Shown here piece by piece: positions 9,667 to 47,616 of a DNA stretch of 64,000 bases. The translations under genes were made by a program, and so were the position numbers. The DNA is taken from NCBI GenBank assembly GCA_963700755.1, contig CAVOYW010000002.1, positions 46,968-110,967 of the forward strand, given 5' to 3'. The notes below the pieces were generated by a model. The model saw only the letters and a list, made by a program, of their open reading frames with translations, was not told the origin of the DNA and searched no databases. How positions within the stretch are numbered: position 1 is the stretch's first letter; each line of letters starts with the position of its first letter. The stretch comes from an uncultured Acidimicrobiales bacterium. Lineage in GTDB: Bacteria > Actinomycetota > Acidimicrobiia > Acidimicrobiales > SZUA-35.

Positions 9667-10206
9667 ATGAACGAACCGGTAACCGACCCGGTGAACCAGG
9701 CCGTCGACAAGCGCTCGCTGAAGGCGCGCCTGATCGTCGGCGCCGTGCTCCTCGCCGGTCTCGTCTTCGCCTGGATCATGGGCAGCGCGGTGATCCCCCG
9801 ATGGTGGGGCCGTCGGATCGGTGATCTGGTCGACGGTCGGCTGTTCTACGGGAGCTTCCTCGGTGTCGTGATCGGCGCGGTCCTGACGCTCGTTCCGCTG
9901 ATGGTGCTCCTGATCGGCTGGCACTTTCGAGGCGGATGGAAACGGGGCCTCGGCTTCGTGCTGCTGGCCGGGATGTTGGCCACGCCGAATCTGGCCACGC
10001 TCGGGATCGTCGTCGGCGACGGCAGCGCGGCCCATGCCGGCGAGCGGATCCTCGACGTCGACGGACCGGGTTTCCGCGGCGGCACCCTGGTCGGTGTCGT
10101 GTTGGGCGCCCTGGCCGCCGTCGGACTCTGGTTTCTCACCTGGTCACGTCGCCGGAACAAGACCAAATTGAAGCAGCTGACCGCCGAACGCGCCGAGGAG
10201 TCGTGA
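9667..10206 (+). CDS. Hypothetical integral membrane protein (about 4 TM helices)
   Basis: The start is ATG at 9667 (MNEPVTDP). Four hydrophobic helices are visible, for example LIVGAVLLAGLVFAWIMG and VVLGALAAVGLWFLTW. I recognise no family. Confidence 0.6.
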   Translation: MNEPVTDPVNQAVDKRSLKARLIVGAVLLAGLVFAWIMGSAVIPRWWGRRIGDLVDGRLFYGSFLGVVIGAVLTLVPLMVLLIGWHFRGGWKRGLGFVLLAGMLATPNLATLGIVVGDGSAAHAGERILDVDGPGFRGGTLVGVVLGALAAVGLWFLTWSRRRNKTKLKQLTAERAEES

Positions 10207-10232
10207 CCGACGGCCCACCAGGAGGTTCAACC

Positions 10233-11153
10233 ATGGGAATCCGAGTCGCCGACGTTGCGTTCGTGCGCTTTGCCGCCCCCGACCTCGACGAGATGGAGTC
10301 GTTCCTCGTCGACTTCGGTCTGGTGCGCAGCGAGCGGACCGCCGACACGTTGTTCATGCGGGGTGTCGACGACGAAGGCTTCGTCCACGTCACCCATCTC
10401 GCCGAGGCACCGGCGTTCCTCGGCTTTGCGTTCGATGCCGAGTCGGTCGACGATCTCGAAACGCTGTCGGCACGCGACGACGTCTCGCCTGTGTTCGATC
10501 TCGAGGGCCCCGGTGGTGGCCGGACCGTGCGGCTGACCGACCCCGACGGATTCGAGATCGAGGTCGTCGCCGGCCGTGGGTCGGTCGGGGCGCTTGGTCT
10601 CGGTCGGTCGCTGGTCCACAACGACGCGCGGTCCCGGTCGCGGTTGGGGGAGCCGCTGCGGGTGAGCGCCGGGCCGTCGCAGGTGAAACGGCTGGGCCAC
10701 GTCGTGCTGAACGTGACCGACTTCGCGGTCTCGCAGTCGTGGTACAAGGAATGGTTCGGCCTGATCACCTCCGACGAGATCGTCCTCGATGAGCAGCGCT
10801 CGCTCGGGGCGTTCCTGCGCTGTGATCGCGGTGAACGGTTCGTCGATCATCACACCCTGTTCCTCATCGGGGCGGGATCGCCGTCGTTCAATCATGCTGC
10901 TTTCGAGGTCGTGAACGTCGACGATCTCATGGCCGGTCACACCCATCTCGGCGATCGAGACCGGCGTCACCATTGGGGCGTGGGCCGCCACGTGCTCGGC
11001 AGTCAGGTCTACGACTACTGGTGCGATCCCTGGGGTCAGGTGGTCGAACACTGGACCGACGGCGACCTGTTCGATGCGTCGACGCCGCCGGGCCGGGCCG
11101 GGTTGTCGGAACTGATGGGTTCGCAGTGGGGCCCGACCCACACCCGGCCGTGA
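10233..11153 (+). CDS. VOC-family (glyoxalase / extradiol dioxygenase-like) two-domain protein
   Basis: ATG at 10233 follows GGAGG. The two repeated VOC modules are VAFVRFAAPDLDEMESFLVDFGL...DPDGFEIEVV and LGHVVLNVTDFAVSQSWYKEWFGL...NHAAFEV. Confidence 0.8.
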   Translation: MGIRVADVAFVRFAAPDLDEMESFLVDFGLVRSERTADTLFMRGVDDEGFVHVTHLAEAPAFLGFAFDAESVDDLETLSARDDVSPVFDLEGPGGGRTVRLTDPDGFEIEVVAGRGSVGALGLGRSLVHNDARSRSRLGEPLRVSAGPSQVKRLGHVVLNVTDFAVSQSWYKEWFGLITSDEIVLDEQRSLGAFLRCDRGERFVDHHTLFLIGAGSPSFNHAAFEVVNVDDLMAGHTHLGDRDRRHHWGVGRHVLGSQVYDYWCDPWGQVVEHWTDGDLFDASTPPGRAGLSELMGSQWGPTHTRP

Positions 11154-33241: not shown

Positions 33242-33567
33242 GGCCGCCGACCCTAATGGGACCCGACCGGCGTTGCCGAGTCCGTGTTGCCGGTACCGGG
33301 CCTGGGCCGGTTGGACCGGTCAGTCACACCGAACCGAGGAGCCGGCGTCCGATCCCGAACAACTGCGGGGCCTGCGTTCGCCGCACCGTTCGGAGGCCCC
33401 GCAGAATTCCGGAAGACGACGCTCGCCCCACGGTCGGGTGGTGGGGTAGTTGGGTGGTGGAGTGGTCGGAGGGTCGGAGGGTCGGGTGGCGACGGGGTCG
33501 GTCGGACCGGGCTGAGGTCCGACACCGGGGGTCGTGCGAAGATGTCCCGAGACGAAAGGGGAGCGAG

Positions 33568-34419
33568 GTGCTCACGAGACGCGGTGGTTACCTGCGGTGG
33601 GTGGCGGATGATTCGGTGCCGGCAGCGAGCCGGCAACTGCAGAACGAGGGATGGGTCCTGCTCCGGTCCGTACTGGACCACGACGAGGTCGCTGCGCTCG
33701 CCCGGTCGGTCGACGAGGTCTTCCGCACCCTGCCCGGCGATCGGAGGCGCCCCGACGCCGAGCCGGCGTTGGTCGACCAGTTCCGCTACGAGATGCTCAA
33801 TCGTTCGTCCGAGGCGCAGCAGGTCCTGGGGAACCGGCGCATCCTCGACGTGATCGAGCCGCTGTTGGGCGAGGACTGCCATGTCATCGCCAACACGGCG
33901 TGGCGCAATCCGCCGAACATCGAACACACCCACGGCGGAGGGTTCTGGCACATCGACGCCGGTCCCCACGTCCCCCTGCCCCCCGGCGTGGACTGGGACG
34001 AGGCGATTCCGCATCCGGTCTTCGCCGTCGCCGCTCACGTGCTCCTCCAGGACTGCCCGATCGAGTGCGGCCCCACCGGTGTGATCCCCCGGTCGCACCT
34101 CTCGGGTGAGCCCCCGCCGGCCGACCGGCGTGCGGATCCGTCTCTGCGCTGGCGGGACCGCGAATCGGTCGTCCTCGAGGCGGCGGCCGGCGACGTGCAG
34201 CTGTTCGTGTCCGATGTCTGGCATCGACGCATGCCGACCGGACCCGGTGACGCCGGACGCTTCTTCCTGCAGATCCACTACGGGCGGCGCGACATCGCGC
34301 AACGTCTCCGGACCACCGAGGAGTCGAACCAACTGTCGCCGGCGGCAATCGACCGAGCAGGCGACGATCGAGGGCGAACGCTGATCGGGCTCCATTCACC
34401 GTTCTTCTACGACGGCTGA
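33568..34419 (+). CDS. Phytanoyl-CoA dioxygenase (PhyH) family Fe(II)/2-oxoglutarate oxygenase
   Basis: GTG at 33568 follows AAAGGGGAG. FWHIDAG is the HxD motif, and GPTGVIPRSH and DVWHRR are also present. Confidence 0.8.
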   Translation: MLTRRGGYLRWVADDSVPAASRQLQNEGWVLLRSVLDHDEVAALARSVDEVFRTLPGDRRRPDAEPALVDQFRYEMLNRSSEAQQVLGNRRILDVIEPLLGEDCHVIANTAWRNPPNIEHTHGGGFWHIDAGPHVPLPPGVDWDEAIPHPVFAVAAHVLLQDCPIECGPTGVIPRSHLSGEPPPADRRADPSLRWRDRESVVLEAAAGDVQLFVSDVWHRRMPTGPGDAGRFFLQIHYGRRDIAQRLRTTEESNQLSPAAIDRAGDDRGRTLIGLHSPFFYDG

Positions 34420-36334: not shown

Positions 36335-37141
36335 TCAGCCGGGCCCGGGTCCGTCGCCGTCCCAGAGGATCGGGAAGAGCGGGTGGTCCATCTCGACCCC
36401 GGCGGCGAGTTCGGACTCGAGGCCGGGGAACGGGGGCGAGGTCGTCCAGGGTCGGGGTGCGTGGACCATGTCGTCGCCGAGCAGGCGGACCGACAGCACC
36501 CGGCGGCGGTTCGGGCCCGCCACCCCTCCGGCGCCGTGGACGGTCGCCATGTCGAAGAACACCGCGTCGCCCGGTTCGAGCGCCCATCCGATGACCGGCC
36601 ACCGTTCGGGATCGGCGGCGAAGTCGGGCAGCTCGGCCAGGCTGCCCTCGGGGAACCACTTCGCCTGATCGTCGAGGAAGGTGCGGGGCAGGTACCAGGG
36701 GCCACGGTGGCTGCCGGCGATGAATTCGAGCGTGGCCGACCGGTCGACCGGATCGACCGGGAACCACATGCTGGCGTTCTGGCGCCCGTCGACGTTGTAG
36801 TAGGGCTGGTCCTGGTGCCACGGCGTGCGCTGCCTCGTCCCGGGCTCCTTCACCAGCACGTGGTCGTGATAGAGCCGGATGCGACGCGACCCGGTGAGTT
36901 CGGCGGCGATCCGGGCCGCGGGTGAGTGACGGATGAACCGCTCCATCGACGGCAGACGCGTCCAGTTGCAGAAGTCCTCGATGAACGGGGCGTCGTCGTC
37001 GGCGCTGGCCCGCTTGGCCCGAGGTGACAGATCGGCCAGGTTGGCGTCGATGGCCGCGGCGGCCCACTCGACGTGCTCGGCGCTGAAGGCCTGCCGCACG
37101 CAGACCGCCCCGTCGCGTTCGTAGTCGCCTTCGACGATCAT
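36335..37141 (-). CDS. Phytanoyl-CoA dioxygenase (PhyH) family oxygenase
   Basis: The motifs are TPWHQDQPY (HxD), FIAGSH and VHGAGG. Confidence 0.85.
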   Translation of the reverse strand: MIVEGDYERDGAVCVRQAFSAEHVEWAAAAIDANLADLSPRAKRASADDDAPFIEDFCNWTRLPSMERFIRHSPAARIAAELTGSRRIRLYHDHVLVKEPGTRQRTPWHQDQPYYNVDGRQNASMWFPVDPVDRSATLEFIAGSHRGPWYLPRTFLDDQAKWFPEGSLAELPDFAADPERWPVIGWALEPGDAVFFDMATVHGAGGVAGPNRRRVLSVRLLGDDMVHAPRPWTTSPPFPGLESELAAGVEMDHPLFPILWDGDGPGPG

Positions 37142-37259
37142 GTTGGTCGCTCGTCGGCCGCCTTCAGCACCGGATCAGTCTGCCACGTCGGCGTTCCCGG
37201 GCACGGCCGAGTCGGGCCCGGTAGGGTCGGTTTCATCGGCGAGCGAGGGGAAGACGCAC

Positions 37260-37961
37260 GTGGCAGACATCGAGCTGATGGACCGGGGCTATGCCGCCGT
37301 CATGGCGCAGATCGTGAAGACCGGCGCGGCGCCGCACTTCACCGAGCTGGCGGCCGAGCTCGGCATTCCGATCACCGACGCCCGGGATCTCATCCACGAA
37401 CTGGTCGCGGTCACGCCGGGGTGGACCCACCCGGGCACCGACTACCTGGCGTCGTTCCCGCCGTTCAACCTCCAGCCGACCCACTATCGCGTTTCGATCG
37501 ACGGTGAGCAGCGCTGGTACGCCCAGTGTGGTTTCGAGGCCATGGCCGTTCGCTGGCTCGTCCCGGGTCGTGAGGTTCGGATCGACGCCCCGTGCCTGTG
37601 CTGCGGCGAACCGATCTCGGTGACGATGTGCGACGAGGAGCTGTCGCTGATCGAACCGGCCGAGACCGTCGGCTACACCGCCTCGCAGGTCGGGGGTGAT
37701 GCGGCCAGTCGGCCGTTCCGCTGAGCGAACATGAACCTCTTCCGGTCGGAAGAACACGCACGCCGCTGGTCCGGATTCGACGAGTCGATGGCCTCGAGCC
37801 TGATGCCCGTCGCCGAGTGGGCCGACATCTTCTCGAACCCCTTCTTCCGGGAACGGGGCCGCCCCGACTACCTCTCGTGGACCCGTTCCGACGAAGGCGC
37901 CGCCGCGTTCACCGAACTCCGGGCCCGCCTGCCTCAACCCAGCCACCCCGACTCGGCCTGA
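37260..37961 (+). CDS. Organomercurial lyase (MerB)-like protein with in-frame TGA at 37722-37724; candidate selenoprotein
   Basis: ORFs 37140..37724 and 37731..37961 share one frame. RWYAQCGFEAMAV aligns with MerB YAWCALDTLIF, and APCLCCGEPISVTM aligns with SSHCAATGAPVSLTV. PFR-TGA-ANMNLFRSEEHARRW aligns with SFCCHVHFFASVPTAEDW. The start is GTG at 37260, with ATG 37278 as an alternative. Confidence 0.6.
37738..37753 (+). promoter_or_regulatory. Candidate bacterial SECIS stem-loop for the UGA at 37722
   Basis: The structure is UCUUCC / GGUC / GGAAGA, a 6-bp stem with a GGUC tetraloop at +23 to +26 from the U of UGA. From memory, the E. coli fdhF SECIS has GGUC at +22 to +25. Confidence 0.6.
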
Positions 37962-37965
37962 TTCG

Positions 37966-38001
37966 GAGAGTCTGAGCGACGGAACCGTCGCTCAGCCTCT
38001 C
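37966..38001. terminator. Long imperfect hairpin between convergent genes, followed on the plus strand by a G-rich tract to about 38058
   Basis: The structure is GAGAG-T-CTGAGCGAC / GGAACC / GTCGCTCAG-C-CTCTC, with 5 + 9 bp, one mismatch and a 6-nt loop. It is near-identical to the hairpin at 53063..53100. Confidence 0.55.
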
Positions 38002-38058: not shown

Positions 38059-39012
38059 TCAGGCTCGGGGCGAGTGGTTGCGTTGGCGGAACTCGTGCAC
38101 GGACAGGGAACGAAGCGTGGTCGGCTCGCTGGCCCGGACGGTGGCGCTGCGGGGTTGGCCGAGCATCGGGGCCAACTCGCCGATGTATTCGCCGGGGCCT
38201 CGCTGGGTCAGGACCGTCTCGGTGCCGTCGATGGCTTCGCGTACCACGTCGAGGCGGCCCTGCTCGACCAGATAGACCCGACTCCCCGTCGATCCCTGGC
38301 GGAACAGGATGTCGCCCGACGCGAGCTCGACGCTCGTCTCGGTGGAGTCGTCGTCGAGCGATGGAACGAGATCGATGGAGGTGTCGGCGATGGGCATCAG
38401 CCGGTCGTCGTGGGTCGACACCACCACGGTGTGGCCGGCGGTTGCGATGTCGCGCAGCAGCGAGATGATGCCCTCGGCCTGGACGTAGTCGAGGTTGGCG
38501 GTCGGTTCGTCGGCCAGCAGGAGCGGGGCCCCGCTGGCCAGACCTCGGGCGATTGCCACCCGCTGTTGCTGCCCCCCGGAGAGGTGACTCGGCCGGTGAT
38601 GGGCTCGGTCGCCGAGGCCGACCTGGTCGAGCAGGTTGGCCGCTCGTTGGCGGGCGGCTCCGGCCGACGTTCCGGTGAGGCGGAGCGGCATGGCGATGTT
38701 GTCGAGCGCCGAGAGCGAGGGGATGAGGTTGAACGCCTGGAAGACGAAGCCCACCGAGTTGCGGCGGTGCGACAACAGGGAGCGGTCGTCGAGGCCGGCG
38801 ATGTCGGTGCCGTCGACCATGATCTGTCCGGCCGTCGGTCGGAGGATGCCTCCGAGGCACGACAGCAGCGTGGTCTTGCCGCACCCGGATGGGCCGAGCA
38901 ACAGCGCCAGATCGCCGTCGCCGATGGAGGCGTTCAACCCGTCCAGGGGGCGGATCGGATAGCCGTTCGAGGTGTATTCGACGACGAGATCGCGTATCTG
39001 CAGGTTCGGCAT
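38059..39012 (-). CDS. ABC transporter ATP-binding protein (MacB/LolD-type) with a C-terminal cyclic-nucleotide-binding domain
   Basis: Walker A is GPSGCGKTTL, the signature is LSGGQQQRVAIARGL, and Walker B is LLLADEPTANLD. The C-terminal segment GEYIGELAPMLGQPRSATVRA is a cNMP-binding phosphate-binding cassette. ATG at 39012 lies 1 nt after the upstream stop. Confidence 0.9.
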   Translation of the reverse strand: MPNLQIRDLVVEYTSNGYPIRPLDGLNASIGDGDLALLLGPSGCGKTTLLSCLGGILRPTAGQIMVDGTDIAGLDDRSLLSHRRNSVGFVFQAFNLIPSLSALDNIAMPLRLTGTSAGAARQRAANLLDQVGLGDRAHHRPSHLSGGQQQRVAIARGLASGAPLLLADEPTANLDYVQAEGIISLLRDIATAGHTVVVSTHDDRLMPIADTSIDLVPSLDDDSTETSVELASGDILFRQGSTGSRVYLVEQGRLDVVREAIDGTETVLTQRGPGEYIGELAPMLGQPRSATVRASEPTTLRSLSVHEFRQRNHSPRA

Positions 39013-39013
39013 G

Positions 39014-41965
39014 TCAGGCTCCCGGCCCACCGAAGGCTGCGGCAGGATCGGTTCGTAGCGTTCGTCTGATGGCGCCGTAGCTGGCGGCGGCGGCCACGAT
39101 CATCGACACCGCGACCAGGACGATCCGGTCGCCGAGGTCGAGGTAGACACGAAGCGGGAAGACCGGGGCGAGCAGGGTCTGGACGATCAGGGCGATGATC
39201 GATGCCACCAATCCGATGACCAGGGCCTGGGCGGCCACGCCGATCGAGATCGGGCGGGACGCAACGCCCATGGCTCGGAGGACGGCGATGTCGCGCAGTC
39301 GATCGAGCGTGGCCAGGAAGACGACGGCTCCGATGATGAGCGAGGCAACGACCGCGAGGAGGACCTGCACGAGCCGCATCGTGGCGATCGGTCGTTCGAT
39401 CGGTCCAAGGGCGTCCTCGGCCACCTCGGCCGGCTCGAGTGATCGCAGGGTGGGCGGAAGTTCGGGGAGCTGGTCGACCACCAGGGCCGAGAGCAATGGT
39501 TGACCCTCGACGACGAGGTCGCGAGCTGCGTCGAGCGGAACGAACACCAGGGGCATCCCGGCGAAGACGGTCGTTTCGGCGACGACGCCGGTGACGGTGG
39601 CGTCGAGCGGGCCGAGTCGAACCCGGTCACCGACGCCGAAGGTCGAGTCTTCGGACACCACGACCTCGGCGGCACCCTGGGCCTGGCGACCGTCGATCAA
39701 GGGGGGAGCGTCGTCGGGCAGGTCGGCGTGGCCGACGAGGATCACGTCGAGATCGTTTGCGCCCTCGGCATCGGCCAGGCGATAGCGAGCGATCAGGACC
39801 CGCCCGAGGGCGTCGGCGCCGACCGGACCGAGGTCGGCCAGTGCCGAGTCGGCGAACGTGGCGCTCGAGGTGAAGATGCCGTCGGCCCCGGCCGGGACGA
39901 TCCAGTGCGAGCCGCCGAAGGACGAAACGGCCACGGTCGGTTCCCGGTTGAGTTGGTTGACGACGCCGGTCATCAGGAGGAGGAGGGCGAGCACGACGCT
40001 GGTGGCGGCAACGGCGACGACGAATCGGCGGGCCCGGAGCCGGAGGTCGGCCCATGCGAGCGACAGCGATCCGATGAGGGCGGCACCGGGCGATCGGTCG
40101 GGGGCCGGGCCGGTGTCGGTCGGTCTCGGTCGTGATCGCCCGGCTTCGAGTGCGGCGATCAGTGTCGGGTCGCCAACCGGCGGTTCGGCGCCGGCGAGGA
40201 ACGCGTCGATCAGGGCGGCCGATTGGGTTGCGCCGAGGGCGATCACCTGGCGGACCTTGCCGAATTCCAGAACGCTGAACTCCGACAGGTTGAGGTGCAC
40301 ATGACAGTCCACCGACCCGAGCGCCTCGACCCGGCGGCTGGCCGAGGCCACGGTGGTCGAACGCATCAGGGTGTCGAGCGGGTTCGGCACCCGGTTGGAT
40401 CGCATGCCCGGGATCAGGCGCCGAGCCAGCAGTCGCGGCCCCGACATCACGCGGGGGAGCGGTTCGGTCTTGCGGCCGTGGGGCGGGGCGAGGTCGACCA
40501 CGATCATCGAGCCCTCCCCGGTGAGAGCCCGCGCCCCCTCGACGGGGATGGCGTCGAAGACGGCGCCATCGATGTGAACGTGACCGTCGATGTCGACCGG
40601 CGGGAACACACCGGGGATCGAGATACTGGCGTAGATCGCGTCGGCCATCGGCCCGGTGGTGTGATTCACCGATTCGCCGAGGGTGAGATCGGTGGTGGCA
40701 ATCGAGAGCGGGATCCAGGTGTCGGTGATGTCACGGTCGCCGCACGCCTGCTGAATGCGGCGCCAGGCTCGCCCACCGGCGATGACCGCCCCCACCGGGA
40801 GCGTGTAGTCGAGCAGTTTGCGCATCGACCAGTCGGTCTTCTCGTCGAGGCCGTCGACCGCTCCCAGTACTCCCAGCCAGGCGGCGACGATCGAGCCGCC
40901 GCTCACCCCGGCCACGGCATCGACGGCGATTCCCCGATCGGCGAGGGCCTGGATCGTGCCGACGGCTCCGGCCGATCGCACACCCCCGGCGCCGATGGCC
41001 ATCGTGAGTGGACGACCAACGGCATGGCGAGCGACGCGGTCGAGGTCGGACGGCGTCCGCCGCCGCAGGTGGAGATGCCGGTCGACCTGGCGGCGCACGA
41101 GCCACTCCCGCGTCAGGCGGGGCCGGTCGGCGTCGGCCGGATGTACCAGCACGAGCAGGCGGACCGCGTTCGCCGCTCGGGGCACCGATTCGAGCAGCTG
41201 CTGTTCGGCCTGGCCGATGTCGGGGCCGTCGGCGGTGTCGAGAACGAACACGAGCCGGTCGGCAACCTTGGCGATGGCCCGGTTCCACTCGGGCCGGGCC
41301 GGGTCGCCGAGCAGCGTCACGCCTCGACTCCCGGCCGTTTCGGTGTCTTCCCGTCGGTGTTCGAAGTCGTCGAGCCAGCCGAGGGTTCCGGCCGAGGCGG
41401 CCTGTTCGAGCTCGGGGTGATCGGTGGGATCGATCACGACGTGCTGCCCGATCGACGCCGCCGCGGCGGCCAGAGCGCGTGCCTCGCCCATCACGGTCGA
41501 GTCCAACGGAACGAAGGCCACGACCTCGGTCGGCCCGCCGAGGTCGTCGGCGCCTCGGGTCAGGACGGCGTGCATGATGGCCATGGCTACGTCGGGTTGT
41601 GCGGCCATGAGCGAGATCAGCCACTCCCGGTCGAGCACGGCCAGTTCGGTGCGGCGAGCGGCCCGCATTCGGGCCCGGCGCACCCCGACCTCGAGCAGGG
41701 CCGCTTCGCCGATCAGTTCGCCGGGCCCGTGGAGCCCGATTCGTTGTTCGACACCGTTGCCGTCGATCCGGCTGGCGTGGATCCGGCCCCGGACGACGAC
41801 CCAGGCCGAGTGGCCGGAGTCGCCCACTTCGCAGAGCAGTTCCCCGGCATCGAGCTCGTGGGTGGTCAAGGCCGAGAGGTCGGAATGCCGACCCGCGCCC
41901 GGCAGCGCCCGCTCGAGGGCATCACGCAACAGGGCATCGGGGTCGGCGTCGGGCATGCAGGTCAT
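39014..41965 (-). CDS. Fusion protein: cNMP-binding domain, patatin-like phospholipase (NTE-like) and MacB/FtsX-type ABC permease
   Basis: The N-terminal cNMP-binding segment is GELIGEAALL...RRARMRA. The patatin motifs are GAGGVRSAG (GxGxxG), GVSGGS (GxSxG) and IDGAVFD (the catalytic Asp). The C-terminus has one TM helix, a large loop and three TM helices, with an FtsX-type AVLRAMGVASRPI segment. Confidence 0.85.
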   Translation of the reverse strand: MTCMPDADPDALLRDALERALPGAGRHSDLSALTTHELDAGELLCEVGDSGHSAWVVVRGRIHASRIDGNGVEQRIGLHGPGELIGEAALLEVGVRRARMRAARRTELAVLDREWLISLMAAQPDVAMAIMHAVLTRGADDLGGPTEVVAFVPLDSTVMGEARALAAAAASIGQHVVIDPTDHPELEQAASAGTLGWLDDFEHRREDTETAGSRGVTLLGDPARPEWNRAIAKVADRLVFVLDTADGPDIGQAEQQLLESVPRAANAVRLLVLVHPADADRPRLTREWLVRRQVDRHLHLRRRTPSDLDRVARHAVGRPLTMAIGAGGVRSAGAVGTIQALADRGIAVDAVAGVSGGSIVAAWLGVLGAVDGLDEKTDWSMRKLLDYTLPVGAVIAGGRAWRRIQQACGDRDITDTWIPLSIATTDLTLGESVNHTTGPMADAIYASISIPGVFPPVDIDGHVHIDGAVFDAIPVEGARALTGEGSMIVVDLAPPHGRKTEPLPRVMSGPRLLARRLIPGMRSNRVPNPLDTLMRSTTVASASRRVEALGSVDCHVHLNLSEFSVLEFGKVRQVIALGATQSAALIDAFLAGAEPPVGDPTLIAALEAGRSRPRPTDTGPAPDRSPGAALIGSLSLAWADLRLRARRFVVAVAATSVVLALLLLMTGVVNQLNREPTVAVSSFGGSHWIVPAGADGIFTSSATFADSALADLGPVGADALGRVLIARYRLADAEGANDLDVILVGHADLPDDAPPLIDGRQAQGAAEVVVSEDSTFGVGDRVRLGPLDATVTGVVAETTVFAGMPLVFVPLDAARDLVVEGQPLLSALVVDQLPELPPTLRSLEPAEVAEDALGPIERPIATMRLVQVLLAVVASLIIGAVVFLATLDRLRDIAVLRAMGVASRPISIGVAAQALVIGLVASIIALIVQTLLAPVFPLRVYLDLGDRIVLVAVSMIVAAAASYGAIRRTLRTDPAAAFGGPGA

Positions 41966-42146: not shown

Positions 42147-42312
42147 CGTCGTCCGTACCGTCTGCAGAACGGCGACAATCGGCGGTGACCCGATACGCCG
42201 GCCGACCCCGCCCGAGCAGCACGGACGCGTTGCAGACCGACTGCAGACGGCATTTCGTACGGTCGGACGAGAACGACGTGCAACACTGTTCGACAAGCCC
42301 TGGGGGGTGGCG

Positions 42313-45300
42313 ATGGAGGTCCGGGTTCTCGGCCCGCTGGAGGTGTCGATCGACGGCTCTTCAATCGCGGTCGGCGGGCCACGCCTGCGCCGTCTCCTGC
42401 TCTGCCTCGTCGGTGGTGACGGGTCGGTGCGGTCGATCGACACCCTGATCGACGCCGTGTGGCCCGAGGAGGAACCACCCGAGGGCGCTCGCCGCACGCT
42501 GATGTCGTACGTGTCGCGACTCCGGGGCGTGTTGGTCGACGGCGCGATCGAGCAGATGGGCGCCGGTTACCGGCTGCGCACCGAGCTGGTCTCGGTCGAT
42601 GCGAACCGCTTCGTCGAACTGGTCGACCGCGGTCGGCGGGCGGCCCGGTCGGGCAACGCCTCCGGCGCCGTGACGCTGTACGACGAGGGGCTGGCTCTCT
42701 GGCGGGGCGAACCCGCCGCCGAGTTCGCGGGCGAGCACTGGATCGAGCCGGAACGAGTGCGGCTCGACGAACTGAGGCTGGCCGCCCTCGAGGGCCGGTT
42801 CGAGGCCAAGCTCGCGCTCGATGCCCATGCCGAGGTCCTCGTCGACCTCGAGCAGGCCGACGCGGCTCACCCCGAGCGGGAACGACTGGCCTACCTGTAC
42901 ATGCTGGCGCTCTACCGCTGTGGGCGTCAGATCGAGGCACTCCGACACTTCCAGGCCGTCCGCACCCGATTGGCCGATCTCGGCCTGGAACCGGCCCCGG
43001 AGCTGCGCGACCTCGAACGACAGATCCTCGATCACGATGCGGTGCTCCTGAGCAGCGACCCGGAGCCCGGGACGTCGATCCGGGGCTACGAACTGGGCGA
43101 GCGCATCGGTGAAGGGTCGTTCGGCACGATCCATCGGGCGATCCAGCCATCGGTCGGACGTGAGGTGGCGATCAAGGTGATCCGGCCCGAATTCGCCAAC
43201 GACCCCGGTTCGTCCGCCGGTTCGAGACCGAGGCCCAGCTCGTCGCCCGCCTCGAACACCCGCACATCGTGCCGCTCTACGACTACTGGCGCGAGCCCGA
43301 CGGCGCCTACCTGGTGATGCGGCTGCTGCGCGGCGGCAACGCCGAGGAGAGACTGGTCGCCCGAGGTCCGCTGCCCCTGCCCGATGTCGTCACGATCATC
43401 GACCAGATCGGGGGTGCGCTGGCCGTCGCCCACGCTCGCGGGGTGATCCATCGAGACGTGAAGCCGGCCAACATCTTGTTCGACGACGACGACATCGCCT
43501 ATCTGGCCGACTTCGGGATCGCCGTGCGGGACGAACTCGACACCGCCGACGGGGAGCTGCATTCGGCGGGGTCGCCGCTCTACGCCAGCCCCGAACAGGT
43601 ACGGGGTGGCGAGATCACGGTCCGGTCCGACATCTACAGCCTCGGGATCGCCGCCTACGAGTTGCTGGCGGGGCGGACGGCGTTCTCGGCGGATTCGGTC
43701 CAGGCGCTGCTCGAGACGAAGCTTCGGGCCTCGGTTCCGAGTGTCCGCGTGGTTCGTCCCGATGTGCCGCCTGCGGTCGACGTGGTCATCGATCGGGCGA
43801 CTGCGGTCGATCCCGAGCGTCGGTTCCCCGACATGGGCGAGATGGTGTTGGCGTTCCGGGCGGCGGCCGCATCATCGGCCCAGGCGGTCATGACCGGGGA
43901 TCCGGGGCGAGCCCGGCTCGAGGAGCGACCGCGGGCGGCCGCCAGTCGCACGCTGGTGAACGTCGAGCTGGCCCGAGTCAATCCCTACAAGGGTCTGCGG
44001 GCGTTCCAGGAAGCCGACAGCCAGGACTTCCATGGGCGAGACGTGCTCATCGGCGAGCTGGTCGAGCGGGTCTCGGCCCATCGGCTCGTCGCCGTGGTCG
44101 GGGCCTCGGGCTCGGGCAAGTCGTCGGTCGTGCGGGCCGGCCTGCTCCCGGCGGTCGCCGATCGATCGTGGTTCGTGGTCACGATCCTGCCCGGCGCCCA
44201 CCCGTTGGAGGAGCTCGAAGCGGGCCTGCTCCGGGTGGCGTCCGACGAGGTGCCCGGGCTGTTGGAACAACTGCAGAGCGAGGACCGTGGCCTGATCCGG
44301 GCCGTGCGGCGGGTCCTGCCCCCCGACGACAGCGAACTGTTGCTGGTGATCGATCAGTTCGAGGAGGTCTTCACGGCGGCCGCGGCCGAGGAGCGGGATC
44401 GCTTCCTCGATGGCCTCGTCCAGGCCATCGACGACGACCGCTCGAGGATCCGGGTCGTCGCCACGATCCGGGCCGATTTCTACGACCGCCCGCTCCGTCA
44501 CCGTGGCTTCGGCGCCCTGTTGCAGGACGCCACCCTCAACGTGTTGCCGATGTCGGCCGAGGAGCTCACCGCGGCCATCGAGGCGCCGGCGACACGGCTC
44601 GGGTCCCGGTTCGAGCCGGGACTGGTCGACATGATCGTCGCCGATGTCGGTGAGAACGCCGGGATGTTGCCGTTGCTGCAATACGCGCTGACCGAGCTCT
44701 ACGACCGTCGGATCGGCGACGAGATGACGCTGGCCGGTTACCGCGACATCGGCGGCGTCACCGGTGCCTTGGCCCGCCGGGCCGAGGAGCTGTTTTCGGA
44801 TCTCCACGAGCACGATCAGGCCGGCGCCCGGAGACTGTTCACCCGTCTGGTCACCCCGGGTGAGGGTGTCGAGGACACCCGCCGCCGAGCCCTTCGTTCC
44901 GAACTGACCGTCGTGTCCGACGAGATCATCGATTCGTTCGGTGCCCACCGGCTGCTGTCGTTCGACCGTGATCCGGCCACCCGGGCACCGACGGTCGAGG
45001 TGGCGCACGAGGCGTTGATCCGGGAGTGGGGCCGGTTGCGTCACTGGGTCGACGAGGACCGTCAGGGCCTCCGTACGTTGCGACATCTCACGGCGTCGAC
45101 GAAAGGCTGGATCGACGCCGATCGTGACCCGGCCGAGCTCTATCGCGGCGGCCGTCTCGACGCGGCCGCGGAGTGGGCTGACCAGCATCGCAACGACCTG
45201 GCCCCCGACGAGGTCGAGTTCCTCGAGGCCAGCCGGTCGTTGCGTGAGGTCGAACTGCGGGAGCAGGCCGAGCGGGCGGCGCTCCGCGAGCGGCAGAACC

Positions 45301-47616
45301 AGCGGCTCCGGCGGAGCCTCGTCGGGGTCGGGGTGTTGGCGATCATGGCCCTGCTGGCCGGCGGATTCGCCTTCCAGCAGTGGGGCAGCGCGGGCGCTCG
45401 GGCCGACGAGGCGGCCGAGGCCCGTGCCGCGGCCGAGACCAGGCGTCTGATCTCCGATGCCGGACAGTTGGCGCCCACCAATCGGCGCGTGGCGCTGCTG
45501 CTCGCTGCCGAGGGGTACCGGCGTGACCCCGGCCCAGCCGCCCTCGGTGGGCTGCAAGCGGTGCTCACCGACTCGACCGAGTTCCTCGGATTCCTGGCCG
45601 GCGACATCTCGTTCAACGACATCGCCTGGACCGGCAACGGCGATCTCGTCGGCACCCACTCGACCGGGGTGACATTGCTGTCGCCCGAAGGGGAACGGCT
45701 CCTCGAGATCCCGTTCTCGGGCGCACGGTTGCTGGCGGTGAGCAGCGACGACACCCTCGTCGCCGTGTCCGGACGCGACTCGACGGTGCGGGTCTTCGAC
45801 CTCCGCACCGGCGAACCGGCAACGGAGCCGCTGGTGCACGGTGCGGCGGTCACCAGCATGGCGTTCAGCGACACCGGAGGCCGGTTCGCCACCGGGGACT
45901 GGGCCGGCGACGTGCGGGTCTTCGACGACCGTTTCGAGCTGGTCCAGCAGATCGCCGCCCATCACGACGCCGGGCTCGAGCTGGATCCCGACAATCTACC
46001 GGAGGGGGTCGAACCACCGTTGGCCCACGACCCGCGGAGCTTCAATCTCGGTGTCGTCGATGTCGCGCTCGACATCGGATGGGCGCACGGTGGCGTCGGT
46101 CGGCGGTCAGGTCGTTCGCGCCTGGGATGTCGAGACGCTCGATCTGCTCGTCGATCGGCCACTGAGCCGGCTCACGGCTGATGGCGGGGAGGTCGCCATC
46201 GCTCCGACCGCGGTCGGATTCCTCGATGTCGATGGACGCGAGGTGATCGGCGCCGCCTCGTTGGCCTCGGTCCAGTTGGTGTCGCCCGATTCCGGCGAGC
46301 CGATCGATCGCTGGCCATTCGCCGGTGGGACACCAGGATTCCTTCGTGTCGAGACCACGACCAGCGTGGCCTTCGGTTCGGACATGGTGGCAACGCTGAG
46401 CGCCGATGGGCGAGTGCGGACCGCAGCGCCGGAACCCGATGACGCGACGATCTTCGACAGTCAGCTGACCGGTGAGCTGTCGCTCGACCTCGACGAGGAA
46501 CGAGGAAGGATCGTGGTGGCGGGGCCGGAGGGGGCCATGCGGTTGTCGCTCAACGGCGCCGGACTGATCTCGCGTTCGGTGCCCACAGGAGGGCTCTACG
46601 AGTTCTTCGTCTCCAACGACGGCCAGACCGTCCTCGGCTCCACGGTCGACGAACTCCCCTCGACGATGTGGCGGCTGGTCGGCGACGAGTACCGGGTCGC
46701 GCCGATCAGCGGTCCGACCGTGCACTTCGCCTTCACCGGGATGCCTGGCGGTCTGGGGATCGATCTCTCGACACTCATGATGCAGGAACGGGATCCGGTC
46801 ACCTTCGAGCCGTTCGGACCGGTCTACGGTCCCCACCGGACGTCGGAGGTCCTGACCTCGCCCGATGGGCGGTGGCTGGCGCTCTCGGTCGACCCTCCGG
46901 GTGACGTCGTCGGAGCACGGGTGTACGAGCGTTCGACCGGCGAGGTCGCCGCCGATCTGGACGAGGTCCTCGTCGACCCGAAGGACGCCATCCGGTCTCT
47001 CGGGTTCAGCCCCGACAGCAACCGAATGGTGGTCACGTCCATGGCAGGGGCAGCCCGGGTTTATGACACGGCGACGTGGAAGCCACTGGAACCCATGCTC
47101 AGCGGGGGAGGAGGAGCGGTGGTCGGAGCGGCCTTCACCCCCGACGGGAAGCACCTGGTGACCGCATCGATCGACGGGACCATCACCGTGCGAGACCCCG
47201 CAACGTTCCAACCCGACGGTCTGGCGATGCTCGGAAACACCGGTGCGGTCGAGGGGCAGGCCGTCGGGTCCCTTTTCAGTCCGGACGGCCACTGGATGGT
47301 GACGACCATGGACGGCGAGGCCAGGCTCTGGGACCTCGCCCAGCGTGTCGTGGTCGGAAGGCCGTTTCCGCACAACGGTGAGGCCAACCCCATGGCATCG
47401 GCCAACGCCCGCTACGTCCTGACCCACCTGGATGGGCGGACGGTCGTGTGGGAACTCGATCTCGATCGATGGCCGGAGATCGCCTGCCGGGCCGCCGGCC
47501 GGAACCTGACGATCGCCGAATGGGAGCAGTACGGCCCGGCCGGCGAGCCCTACATCGCGACGTGCCCGCAGTGGCCGTCACCGGACCAGATCGACGACAA
47601 CGGAGGTGCATCATGA
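42313..47616 (+). pseudogene. Giant SARP(BTAD)-Ser/Thr kinase-nSTAND-type P-loop NTPase-TM-WD40/beta-propeller protein, interrupted by two 1-nt frameshifts (about 43209 and about 46072)
   Basis: The N-terminus MEVRVLGPLEV...BTAD (LALYRCGRQIEALRHFQ) is SARP-type. The kinase starts at GEGSFGTIHRA...VAIKV in frame 1 and continues as FVRRFETEAQL...HRDVKPANIL...DFGIA in the frame of ORF 43269. The NTPase segment is NPYKGLRAFQEADSQDFHGRD...VVGASGSGKSS. The TM helix is LVGVGVLAIMALLAGGFAF. The WD-like blades continue after 46072 in the frame of ORF 45841 (SDGRTVASVGGQVVRAWDV). Confidence 0.85.

Follow-up and report, generated by a model that had tools for sequence, protein, structure and literature searches.

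A MerB-like gene crossed by an in-frame UGA

The 64,000-nt stretch of DNA analysed here (hereafter, the window) comes from an uncultured Acidimicrobiales bacterium of the GTDB lineage SZUA-35 (assembly GCA_963700755.1, contig CAVOYW010000002.1, positions 46,968 to 110,967 of the forward strand), and carries on its plus strand a gene related to that of the organomercurial lyase MerB, crossed by an in-frame TGA that very probably, as judged from comparative sequence evidence, encodes selenocysteine (Sec). Two open reading frames (ORFs), 37140 to 37724 and 37731 to 37961, share one frame and are separated only by the TGA at 37722-37724 and the two sense codons GCG and AAC, as an earlier, preliminary description of the locus had read directly from the sequence. 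That description took the upstream ORF from ATG 37140; its frame stands but not its start, given that the first 40 codons are unsupported by homologues and that these begin MA(D/E)xELxDRGY (MADxELxDRGY), which places the true start at GTG 37260. The complete coding sequence then runs from 37260 to 37961, ends at a true stop TGA (37959-37961), and gives a predicted MerB-like selenoprotein of 233 amino acids (aa) with Sec as residue 155.

Homology to MerB runs across the internal stop. With Cys placed at the stop, the joined 233-aa product matches the Pfam MerB family (PF03243; gathering cut-off 27 bits) at 70.9 bits (E 1.2e-19) over residues 70-187 and positions 2-117 of a profile of 126; the upstream ORF alone scores 45.9 bits and ends at profile position 67, and the 76-aa downstream ORF alone has no Pfam match. 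The correspondence with MerB given in the preliminary description is reproduced by phmmer against the MerB chains of the Protein Data Bank (PDB; 1s6l, 3f0p, and others; E 1.5e-7), which aligns Y-A-Q-C-G-F-E to Y-A-W-C96-A-L-D99, and F-R-[TGA]-A-N-M-N-L-F-R-S to S-F-C159-C-H-V-H-F-F-A-S. The TGT of Cys90 (37527-37529) accordingly occupies the column of the first metal ligand, MerB Cys96, the GAG of Glu93 (37536-37538) that of the proton donor Asp99 (C-G-F-E versus C-A-L-D), and the in-frame TGA that of Cys159, so that the stop falls on the second catalytic Cys column just as originally proposed. The three columns of the catalytic triad, Cys96/Asp99/Cys159, are in this way filled by the conservative equivalents Cys90/Glu93/predicted Sec155, with Glu at the Asp99 column invariant in 12 of 12 sequences (alignment A2).

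The fold was examined with an AlphaFold2 model of a full-length homologue, P0006, in which Trp stands at both Sec positions (a genetic code 4 gene call, discussed below). The model has a mean predicted local distance difference test (pLDDT) score of 85.9 and a predicted template modelling (pTM) score of 0.83, and its low confidence in the loop around Sec (residues ~141-160) stems from the Trp modelled at both Sec positions. Compared with the PDB by Foldseek, its sole significant matches are eleven MerB/MerB2 chains (~225 columns, TM score 0.53-0.63, E down to 1e-8), and since these alignments are full length, the part encoded past the TGA belongs to the same fold. Ahead of the MerB core lies an N-terminal helical, winged-helix-like domain (37260-37430, residues 1 to ~57, limits approximate), with helices 4-21, 27-34 and 38-50 in the P0006 model and a weak match to HTH_IclR (E 0.04).

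Conservation of the internal UGA and of the frame beyond it

A scan of GTDB at one genome per species found relatives in 179 species genomes, and the 80 best loci among them, three Joint Genome Institute (JGI) contigs and the window make up the set of 84 orthologous loci on which the comparisons below are based. These loci come from Acidimicrobiia (among them Ilumatobacteraceae, Microthrix, and Poriferisodalis, a sponge symbiont), Binatia (which often carry the label Deltaproteobacteria), and Chloroflexota. All 84 have TGA as the internal stop, never TAA or TAG, which would be very improbable for an ordinary terminator, because the terminal stops of the same genes are mixed (51 TGA, 24 TAG and 8 TAA, or 61% TGA and 39% TAG/TAA). 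The 78 codons that follow (37725-37958 in the window), which would be translated only upon recoding of the UGA, are open and conserved in all 84: the motif x-x-M-N-L-F-R-S-E-E-H-A-R-x-W is present in every locus but L002, ~60 more conserved in-frame codons come after it in all of them, and no stop or frameshift interrupts the ~70 codons past the TGA. The proportions of nonsynonymous (pN) and synonymous (pS) differences are 0.355 and 0.637 downstream of the hairpin described below, and 0.257 and 0.637 upstream. As to L002 (positions 209-868 of a 1.15-kb JGI contig), it keeps the TGA and has an 11-codon deletion that removes M-N-L-F-R-S-E-E-H-A-R together with the hairpin; this sole exception among the 84 probably arose as a defective copy or through faulty assembly, or may be a copy that relies on another recoding signal.

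Protein databases offer another picture. The more than 100 relatives with 68-83% identity that a protein search gave are all 153-154 aa long and cut at the same column, several of them under the NCBI name "organomercurial lyase"; related to the 76-aa ORF are 351 database proteins of 72-76 aa, from contigs of the same sort. Superficially, this is the natural C-terminus with a separate downstream gene that the preliminary description had set against its own proposal, but it is a gene-calling artefact, because the frame, the 6-nt (two-codon) spacing from the TGA to the conserved Met, and the identity of the TGA never vary among the loci. Two real genes, a 154-aa MerB-like one ending at TGA 37722 and a 76-aa one from ATG 37731, perhaps linked by termination-reinitiation and yielding separate proteins or a split enzyme, are what every gene caller gives, yet we consider them very improbable: beyond the uniform TGA and the constant frame and spacing, neither piece would hold the Cys-column residue found in full-length homologues and in MerB, and the hairpin and the second TGA described below argue in the same direction.

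A distinct artefact affects three JGI proteins, P0002, P0003 and P0006 (loci L001-L003), which are full length with Trp at the stop column and, in two of them, also at the first catalytic Cys column. Their DNA has TGA at the Trp positions and does not yield the stated proteins under translation table 11, so these Trp residues are a product of code-4 gene calling on short contigs and would mislead alignments of the catalytic columns.

A SECIS-like hairpin within the coding sequence

Just past the TGA, UCUUCC-GGUC-GGAAGA (37738-37753) forms a 6-bp stem that places GGUC at +23 to +26 from the U of UGA, and here the preliminary description proved exact. The whole element, which resembles a Sec insertion sequence (SECIS), spans 37737-37754 on the plus strand, with stem strands 37737-37743 and 37748-37754 around the GGUC loop (37744-37747), and the same bases encode L-F-R-S-E-E. 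Most homologues have a 7-bp stem in a near-invariant hairpin, CUCUUCC-GGUC-GGAAGAG; that of the window has only six pairs because 37737/37754 is a C·A mismatch. In an alignment of 83 sequences the GGUC loop is invariant (83/83), and 97.7% of cells are paired over the 7-bp helix, compared with 41-58% when the partner strand is slid. Compensatory changes occur at three pairs in a low-GC marine clade (L079/81/82/83), whose hairpin is UUGUUCA-GGUC-UGAACAA.

Constraint at synonymous sites is pronounced. Codons +5 to +10 after the TGA are nearly frozen (CTC 78/82, TTC 83/83, CGG 79/83, TCG 79/83, GAA 82/83, GAG 67/78), whereas five synonyms occur for the Arg codon just 5′ of the TGA and four to six for Leu, Ser, and Arg codons elsewhere, and pS for codons 156-166 (0.31) is half the value of the flanks (0.64). 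The loop is asymmetric, GGUC on one strand and GACC on the other, which favours a strand-specific RNA element over a DNA palindrome; neither this asymmetry nor the frozen synonymous sites would have a role if the locus held two genes. A role in termination was also considered, since a consensus terminator scan flags the hairpin (37737-37754) on the minus strand as the only terminator-like site in the region, and was rejected: no gene on the minus strand terminates at this place, 83 genomes that differ in the neighbouring genes preserve the hairpin within a coding frame, and the GGUC loop, being asymmetric, is specific to one strand.

Bacterial SECIS elements are stem-loops that start ~11-20 nt after the UGA and present G and U in the apical loop. 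In the well-studied case of Escherichia coli fdhF, as here, the hairpin lies just 3′ of the UGA within the coding sequence and has a GGUC apical loop with G/U at about +23/+24; the fdhF GGUC is at +22 to +25, one nt off from its place at +23 to +26 in the clade formed by the 84 loci, and the low-GC loci read CAGGUCUG as fdhF does. The putative SECIS of the clade differs from that of fdhF in its shorter stem (6-7 bp), without the bulged U and without the long lower helix.

Cys/Sec alternation and a second UGA

Among the 710 matches of a profile search covering 1.84 billion representative proteins, the uninterrupted full-length homologues, more distantly related (P0242, P0245, P0250, P0345, P0353, P0384), have Cys at the column where all 84 orthologues have TGA, and P0242, P0245, and P0353 were confirmed as standard-code translations; these Cys-forms carry no GGUC loop. 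The alternation extends to the other metal-ligand position, the Cys96-equivalent column (Cys90 in the window protein), where 28 of the 84 loci have TGA and the others TGC or TGT, at times between close relatives: L076, with TGT, and L060, with TGA, share 90% identity, and L068 and L073 share 78%. A second hairpin can form in each of the 28 two-TGA loci (nt 15-20 pairing with nt 26-31 after the first UGA, with G22-U23 invariant in the loop), and its codons are likewise frozen (CTG 27/28, CGC 28/28, Val obligatory); among the forms with Cys at this column the stem can form in 21 of 56 and GU is found in 11 of 56. The 64-aa middle fragment of the two-TGA loci has no conserved start codon, so that a reading as three separate genes is not viable, and two genes divided at the second TGA become harder to defend. 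Many ~90-aa representative proteins end at the first column, which indicates that the two-Sec form is diverse in metagenomes.

Breadth in metagenomes and variant architectures

When metagenomes were scanned for the exact 23-nt TGA-proximal module, TGA-N6-ATGAAYCTCTTCCGGTCGGAAGA, at least 120 contigs matched, with the identical TGA and hairpin in MerB-like genes among the matches listed. Eighty of these listed loci (L089-L168) were read, and all are MerB-like, with 28-71% identity to the window protein. The residues before the TGA are PYA in 24, VFT in 12, AFN in 5, PFR in 4, and others (including PFL) in the remainder; the first catalytic column is TGA in 39 of the 55 loci where it is readable, and 73 of 75 have no stop within the next 65 codons. 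PYA-U, VFT-U, AFN-U, and PFL-U form distinct groups with identities to the window protein of only 28-46%, and the VFT-U group keeps C-A-W-D, that is, the Asp of MerB. Representatives of four metagenome groups score 34-45 bits with the model for SaoL, a MerB-like selenoprotein treated below (NF040728; cut-off 140), and 21-37 bits with the MerB equivalog models (NF033555 and NF009710; cut-offs 200 and 193, respectively).

A pseudogene, in which a nonsense mutation or a sequencing error turned TGC or TGT into TGA in a Cys-type merB-like gene, would need a single base change, and the window is apparently a metagenome-assembled contig. This explanation has a negligible probability, refuted as it is by the recurrence of the same TGA, followed by an intact frame, in 84 of 84 independent species-level loci from three phyla and in at least 120 further contigs from metagenomes.

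Some genes show architectures beyond the 233-aa form. Loci of the Poriferisodalis clade (L041, L047, L048, L050, L051, L054, L057, L070, L072) have ~145 extra in-frame residues past the usual C-terminus, an extension without a Pfam match; the extended genes lie at ~10001-11110 in each locus, except in L070 and L072, where the coordinates differ. Some of the metagenome genes with the module likewise run on into long additional C-terminal regions (331-622 aa as extracted, the boundaries being provisional), and in P0106 (257 aa) an HD-domain segment (PF13487, PF01966) is joined to the N-terminus of a truncated MerB-like sequence, by gene call or as a real fusion.

Probable selenocysteine insertion and other readings of the UGA

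Signs that carriers of the gene decode UGA as Sec come from selD. A SelD with Sec in place of Cys17 is a well-known form of this protein, and tblastn of the related-locus DNA with E. coli (MG1655) SelA, SelB, and SelD as queries found a single selD, in L053 (14625-15701, minus strand), 4 kb from the MerB-like gene, with TGA on the E. coli Cys17 column (H-G-A-G-TGA-G-C-K). A second Sec-type selD (L209, 9902-10951, plus strand), again with TGA on the Cys17 column, belongs to the chromosome OZ244139.1 (6,302,723 bp), which carries the two-Sec locus L052. A search with the L053 SelD finds mostly relatives of 316-317 aa that are N-terminally truncated, gene callers having started past the TGA. Sec-type SelD and the MerB-like protein are thus alike in alternating Sec with Cys at a catalytic Cys and in being truncated by gene callers; they are unrelated in fold and function, and SelD serves here only as a marker of lineages that decode UGA as Sec. 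Within the class Acidimicrobiia, moreover, the Sec machinery is reported to be universal in Actinomarinales, with selA, selB, selC, and selD in all 84 complete Actinomarina genomes (preprint 10.64898/2026.04.03.716425). Sec decoding is documented, then, in the lineage and in two carrier genomes other than that of the window.

These data bear on whether the UGA is instead read through as Trp, Cys, or Gly by a near-cognate or suppressor tRNA or under a reassigned code, with the hairpin merely stimulating the event. Such a reading would accommodate the lack of visible Sec machinery in the window and the Trp given at the TGA in P0002, P0003, and P0006, but the latter are code-4 artefacts on short contigs, and the code has not been reassigned, because TGA is the commonest true terminator of the same genes (51/83). 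The two TGAs coincide with the Cys columns of the two metal ligands, where other sequences have Cys codons instead, a pattern characteristic of Sec rather than of Trp or Gly; in its spacing and GU loop the hairpin conforms to a bacterial SECIS; and two carrier genomes have a Sec-type selD. Read-through without Sec accordingly appears hardly likely.

Several observations nevertheless weigh against Sec insertion. No tRNA-Sec, selA, selB, or selD was found within the 64-kb window (where ARAGORN reports only a tRNA-Gly; tblastn for the proteins), and no selA, selB, or tRNA-Sec in ~1.8 Mb of related-locus DNA (1.4 Mb and 0.39 Mb) examined with the same tools. A selD gene is not specific to Sec insertion, though its Sec-type form does imply it. 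RNAfold includes the hairpin in the minimum free energy structure of the region around it, but this 76-nt region, of GC-rich DNA, is no more stable than its shuffles (z = +1.21), and it is the comparative data, not thermodynamics, that set the hairpin beyond chance. The compensatory changes are confined to one clade and represent few independent events; the frozen synonymous sites are the stronger argument. An Rfam scan gave no match to a SECIS or any other RNA family at the gathering threshold or at E <= 10, a result that is uninformative because bacterial SECIS elements are poorly covered. Lastly, the ATG two codons past the TGA, shared by 83 of 83 loci, is also compatible with reinitiation of translation and hence with two genes; in uninterrupted Cys-forms this column is Met or Ile, which marks the Met as a structural residue.

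Taken together, the TGA in 84 of 84 loci, the homologues with Cys, the constrained hairpin and the metagenome module support what the preliminary description had proposed, and very probably the locus is a single MerB-fold gene whose UGA at 37722 encodes Sec. In the proposed mechanism, the hairpin, 13 nt past the UGA, would act as a bacterial SECIS and recruit SelB·GTP·Sec-tRNA(Sec) to the ribosome paused at the UGA, after which translation would resume for 78 codons.

Relationship to SaoL and MerB

The preliminary description regarded a Sec-for-Cys exchange in a MerB fold as outside the textbook selenoprotein families. This holds only in part, for SaoL (NF040728), a MerB-like selenoprotein reported in 2022, has a C-U motif with the U on the Cys159 column; it belongs to a nine-gene SAO locus of strict anaerobes and has rare Cys variants (Haft & Gwadz 2022, bioRxiv 10.1101/2022.07.06.499078). 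The proteins of the clade share with SaoL the Pfam family PF03243, a (here predicted) Sec on the same catalytic column and database entries truncated at the UGA, yet fall outside the SaoL and MerB models and differ on several counts. The window protein scores 27.2 bits with the SaoL model, far from its cut-off of 140, and over residues 68-135 only; the clade motif is F-R-U-[A/G/S/M], with no locus having Cys before U, in contrast to C-U; the proton-donor column holds Glu and not the Asp of SaoL; and the nine-gene SAO locus is absent. The hosts are Acidimicrobiia, Binatia, and Chloroflexota of soil, sea, and sponges, compared with Clostridioides, Brachyspira, and Syntrophobacter for SaoL, and a third of the clade loci have a second predicted Sec on the Cys96 column, whereas SaoL has one Sec (2026 review).

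With MerB (R831b; 1s6l, 3f0p) and MerB2 (5c17) the clade shares the fold, detectable homology, and functional equivalence of the three catalytic columns. It diverges from MerB in sequence (~15-20% identity), in having a predicted Sec for Cys159, Glu for Asp99 and no Cys160, and in the location of its gene outside a mer operon; its scores with the MerB equivalog models are 35-39 bits (34.6 for the window protein with NF033555 and 38.6 with NF009710), short of cut-offs of 193-200. The 2022 and 2026 reviews of the prokaryotic selenoproteome list SaoL, with one Sec, as the sole MerB-like form, and neither the 2026 review nor the June 2026 release of NCBIfam has an entry for the clade. The concept of a Sec-containing MerB relative is therefore already known, and the clade is a distinct, widespread and mis-annotated branch whose two-Sec forms are its most unusual feature.

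Gene neighbourhood

Upstream and divergent in the window is a gene for a PhyH (phytanoyl-CoA dioxygenase-like) protein (36338-37141, minus strand), beyond which lie genes for an enoyl-CoA hydratase, a second PhyH protein (33256-34416, plus strand), and a short-chain dehydrogenase/reductase (SDR); the hydratase and the SDR are flanked by the two PhyH genes. On the downstream side, 11 nt past the true stop and between convergent genes, is a perfect 11-nt inverted repeat, CTGAGCGACGG-AA-CCGTCGCTCAG (37972-37995), probably a (bidirectional) terminator hairpin without a T-run, for lack of which it goes unflagged by the consensus terminator scan. The convergent gene (38062-39030, minus strand) encodes an ABC ATPase fused to a cyclic nucleotide monophosphate (cNMP)-binding domain, and overlaps by 14 nt the next one (39017-41965, minus strand), whose 983-aa product combines cNMP-binding, NTE P-loop-like, patatin phospholipase, and FtsX permease domains; they appear to form an unusual transporter/lipase pair regulated by cyclic nucleotides. 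Farther along, a gene for a SARP/BTAD-type regulator (42307-43314, plus strand) overlaps another (43269-46178, plus strand) for a 970-aa protein with Ser/Thr kinase, nSTAND1 NTPase, and WD40 domains.

Across the 84 loci, recurrent neighbours include cytochrome P450, M20 amidohydrolase, luciferase-like oxidoreductase, CoA-transferase III, 2-hydroxyacid dehydrogenase, and GltD-like proteins, with SDR and crotonase neighbours recurring in 18-19 of the 84. A reading of the gene as part of a mer operon or of an SAO locus was rejected, given that no neighbour family exceeds 19 of 84 loci and nothing is mercury-related.

Possible function

The active site would consist of Cys90, Glu93, and Sec155, matching Cys96, Asp99, and Cys159 of MerB, and in sister lineages both metal ligands would be Sec. 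By analogy with MerB, the thiolate and the selenolate would bind the soft metal of an organometallic substrate, and the carboxylate would protonate the leaving carbon, with cleavage of the carbon-metal bond; we infer such a mechanism from the MerB fold and the retained triad (Cys or Sec, Glu, Sec). On this analogy we lean slightly towards a carbon-metal lyase. Organomercurials are the leading candidate substrate, but this is a more tentative proposal, with other substrates equally open.

What weighs against a lyase is in part genomic context: all-against-all clustering of the flanking ORFs reveals no conserved neighbourhood, the commonest family being found in 19 of 84 loci, and no mer genes (merA, merR, merT, merP) are among the neighbours in the window or in the 84 loci. 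Release of a very tightly bound metal in the absence of MerA is also left unexplained, and Asp99 is replaced by Glu in a protein that scores far below the MerB equivalog cut-offs. The same facts, the lack of a mer operon, of merA and of any conserved operon partner included, would suit a MerB-fold selenoprotein that is no lyase and serves instead to bind or traffic a soft metal (Hg, Cu, Cd) or selenium, or as a redox Cys-Sec or Sec-Sec couple. A Se/Se or S/Se site would be expected to grip Hg(II) very tightly, making turnover without a partner problematic, and MerB itself binds other metals (Haft & Gwadz, bioRxiv 10.1101/2022.07.06.499078). Opposed to this are the conservation of the whole MerB core fold and of the three catalytic columns, with a carboxylate, the Glu invariant in alignment A2, at the proton-donor site, and the behaviour of selone-based MerB mimics, which cleave Hg-C bonds faster than their sulfur analogues (PMC11639659). 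A non-lyase role is, on balance, unlikely, though it deserves serious attention.

Implications

More speculatively, and with some doubt, the loci described here may belong to a large unrecognised environmental superfamily of MerB-fold selenoenzymes from soils, oceans, and sponge symbionts, with a Cys/Sec or Sec/Sec metal pair and one near-invariant 18-nt SECIS that doubles as the codons for LFRSEE, distributed over Acidimicrobiia, Binatia, Chloroflexota, and lineages 28-46% identical, whose members would be stand-alone, MerA-independent lyases of very high affinity for trace methylmercury or organometal(loid) compounds. If true, the mercury/organometal cycle of oxic habitats would have an overlooked branch that depends on selenium, and, were methylmercury the substrate, there would be a capacity for demethylation, so far unrecognised, conditional on the supply of selenium.

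Across at least 179 species genomes and hundreds of contigs from metagenomes, the gene is split into a 154-aa "organomercurial lyase" (a 90-aa stub in the two-Sec forms) and an anonymous 73-aa ORF, and surveys of merB and of selenoproteomes mis-count it because it is either split at the TGA or translated with Trp. The precedent of SaoL, which belongs to a rare system found in anaerobes, would be extended to abundant lineages, most of which are probably aerobic. The clade would offer the MerB metal site in two natural versions, S/Se and Se/Se, with matched Cys/Sec forms that are 90% identical (L076 and L060), and its very short, near-invariant putative SECIS within the coding sequence, together with a second, weaker one 5′ in the same gene, would make a compact model for Sec recoding in bacteria.

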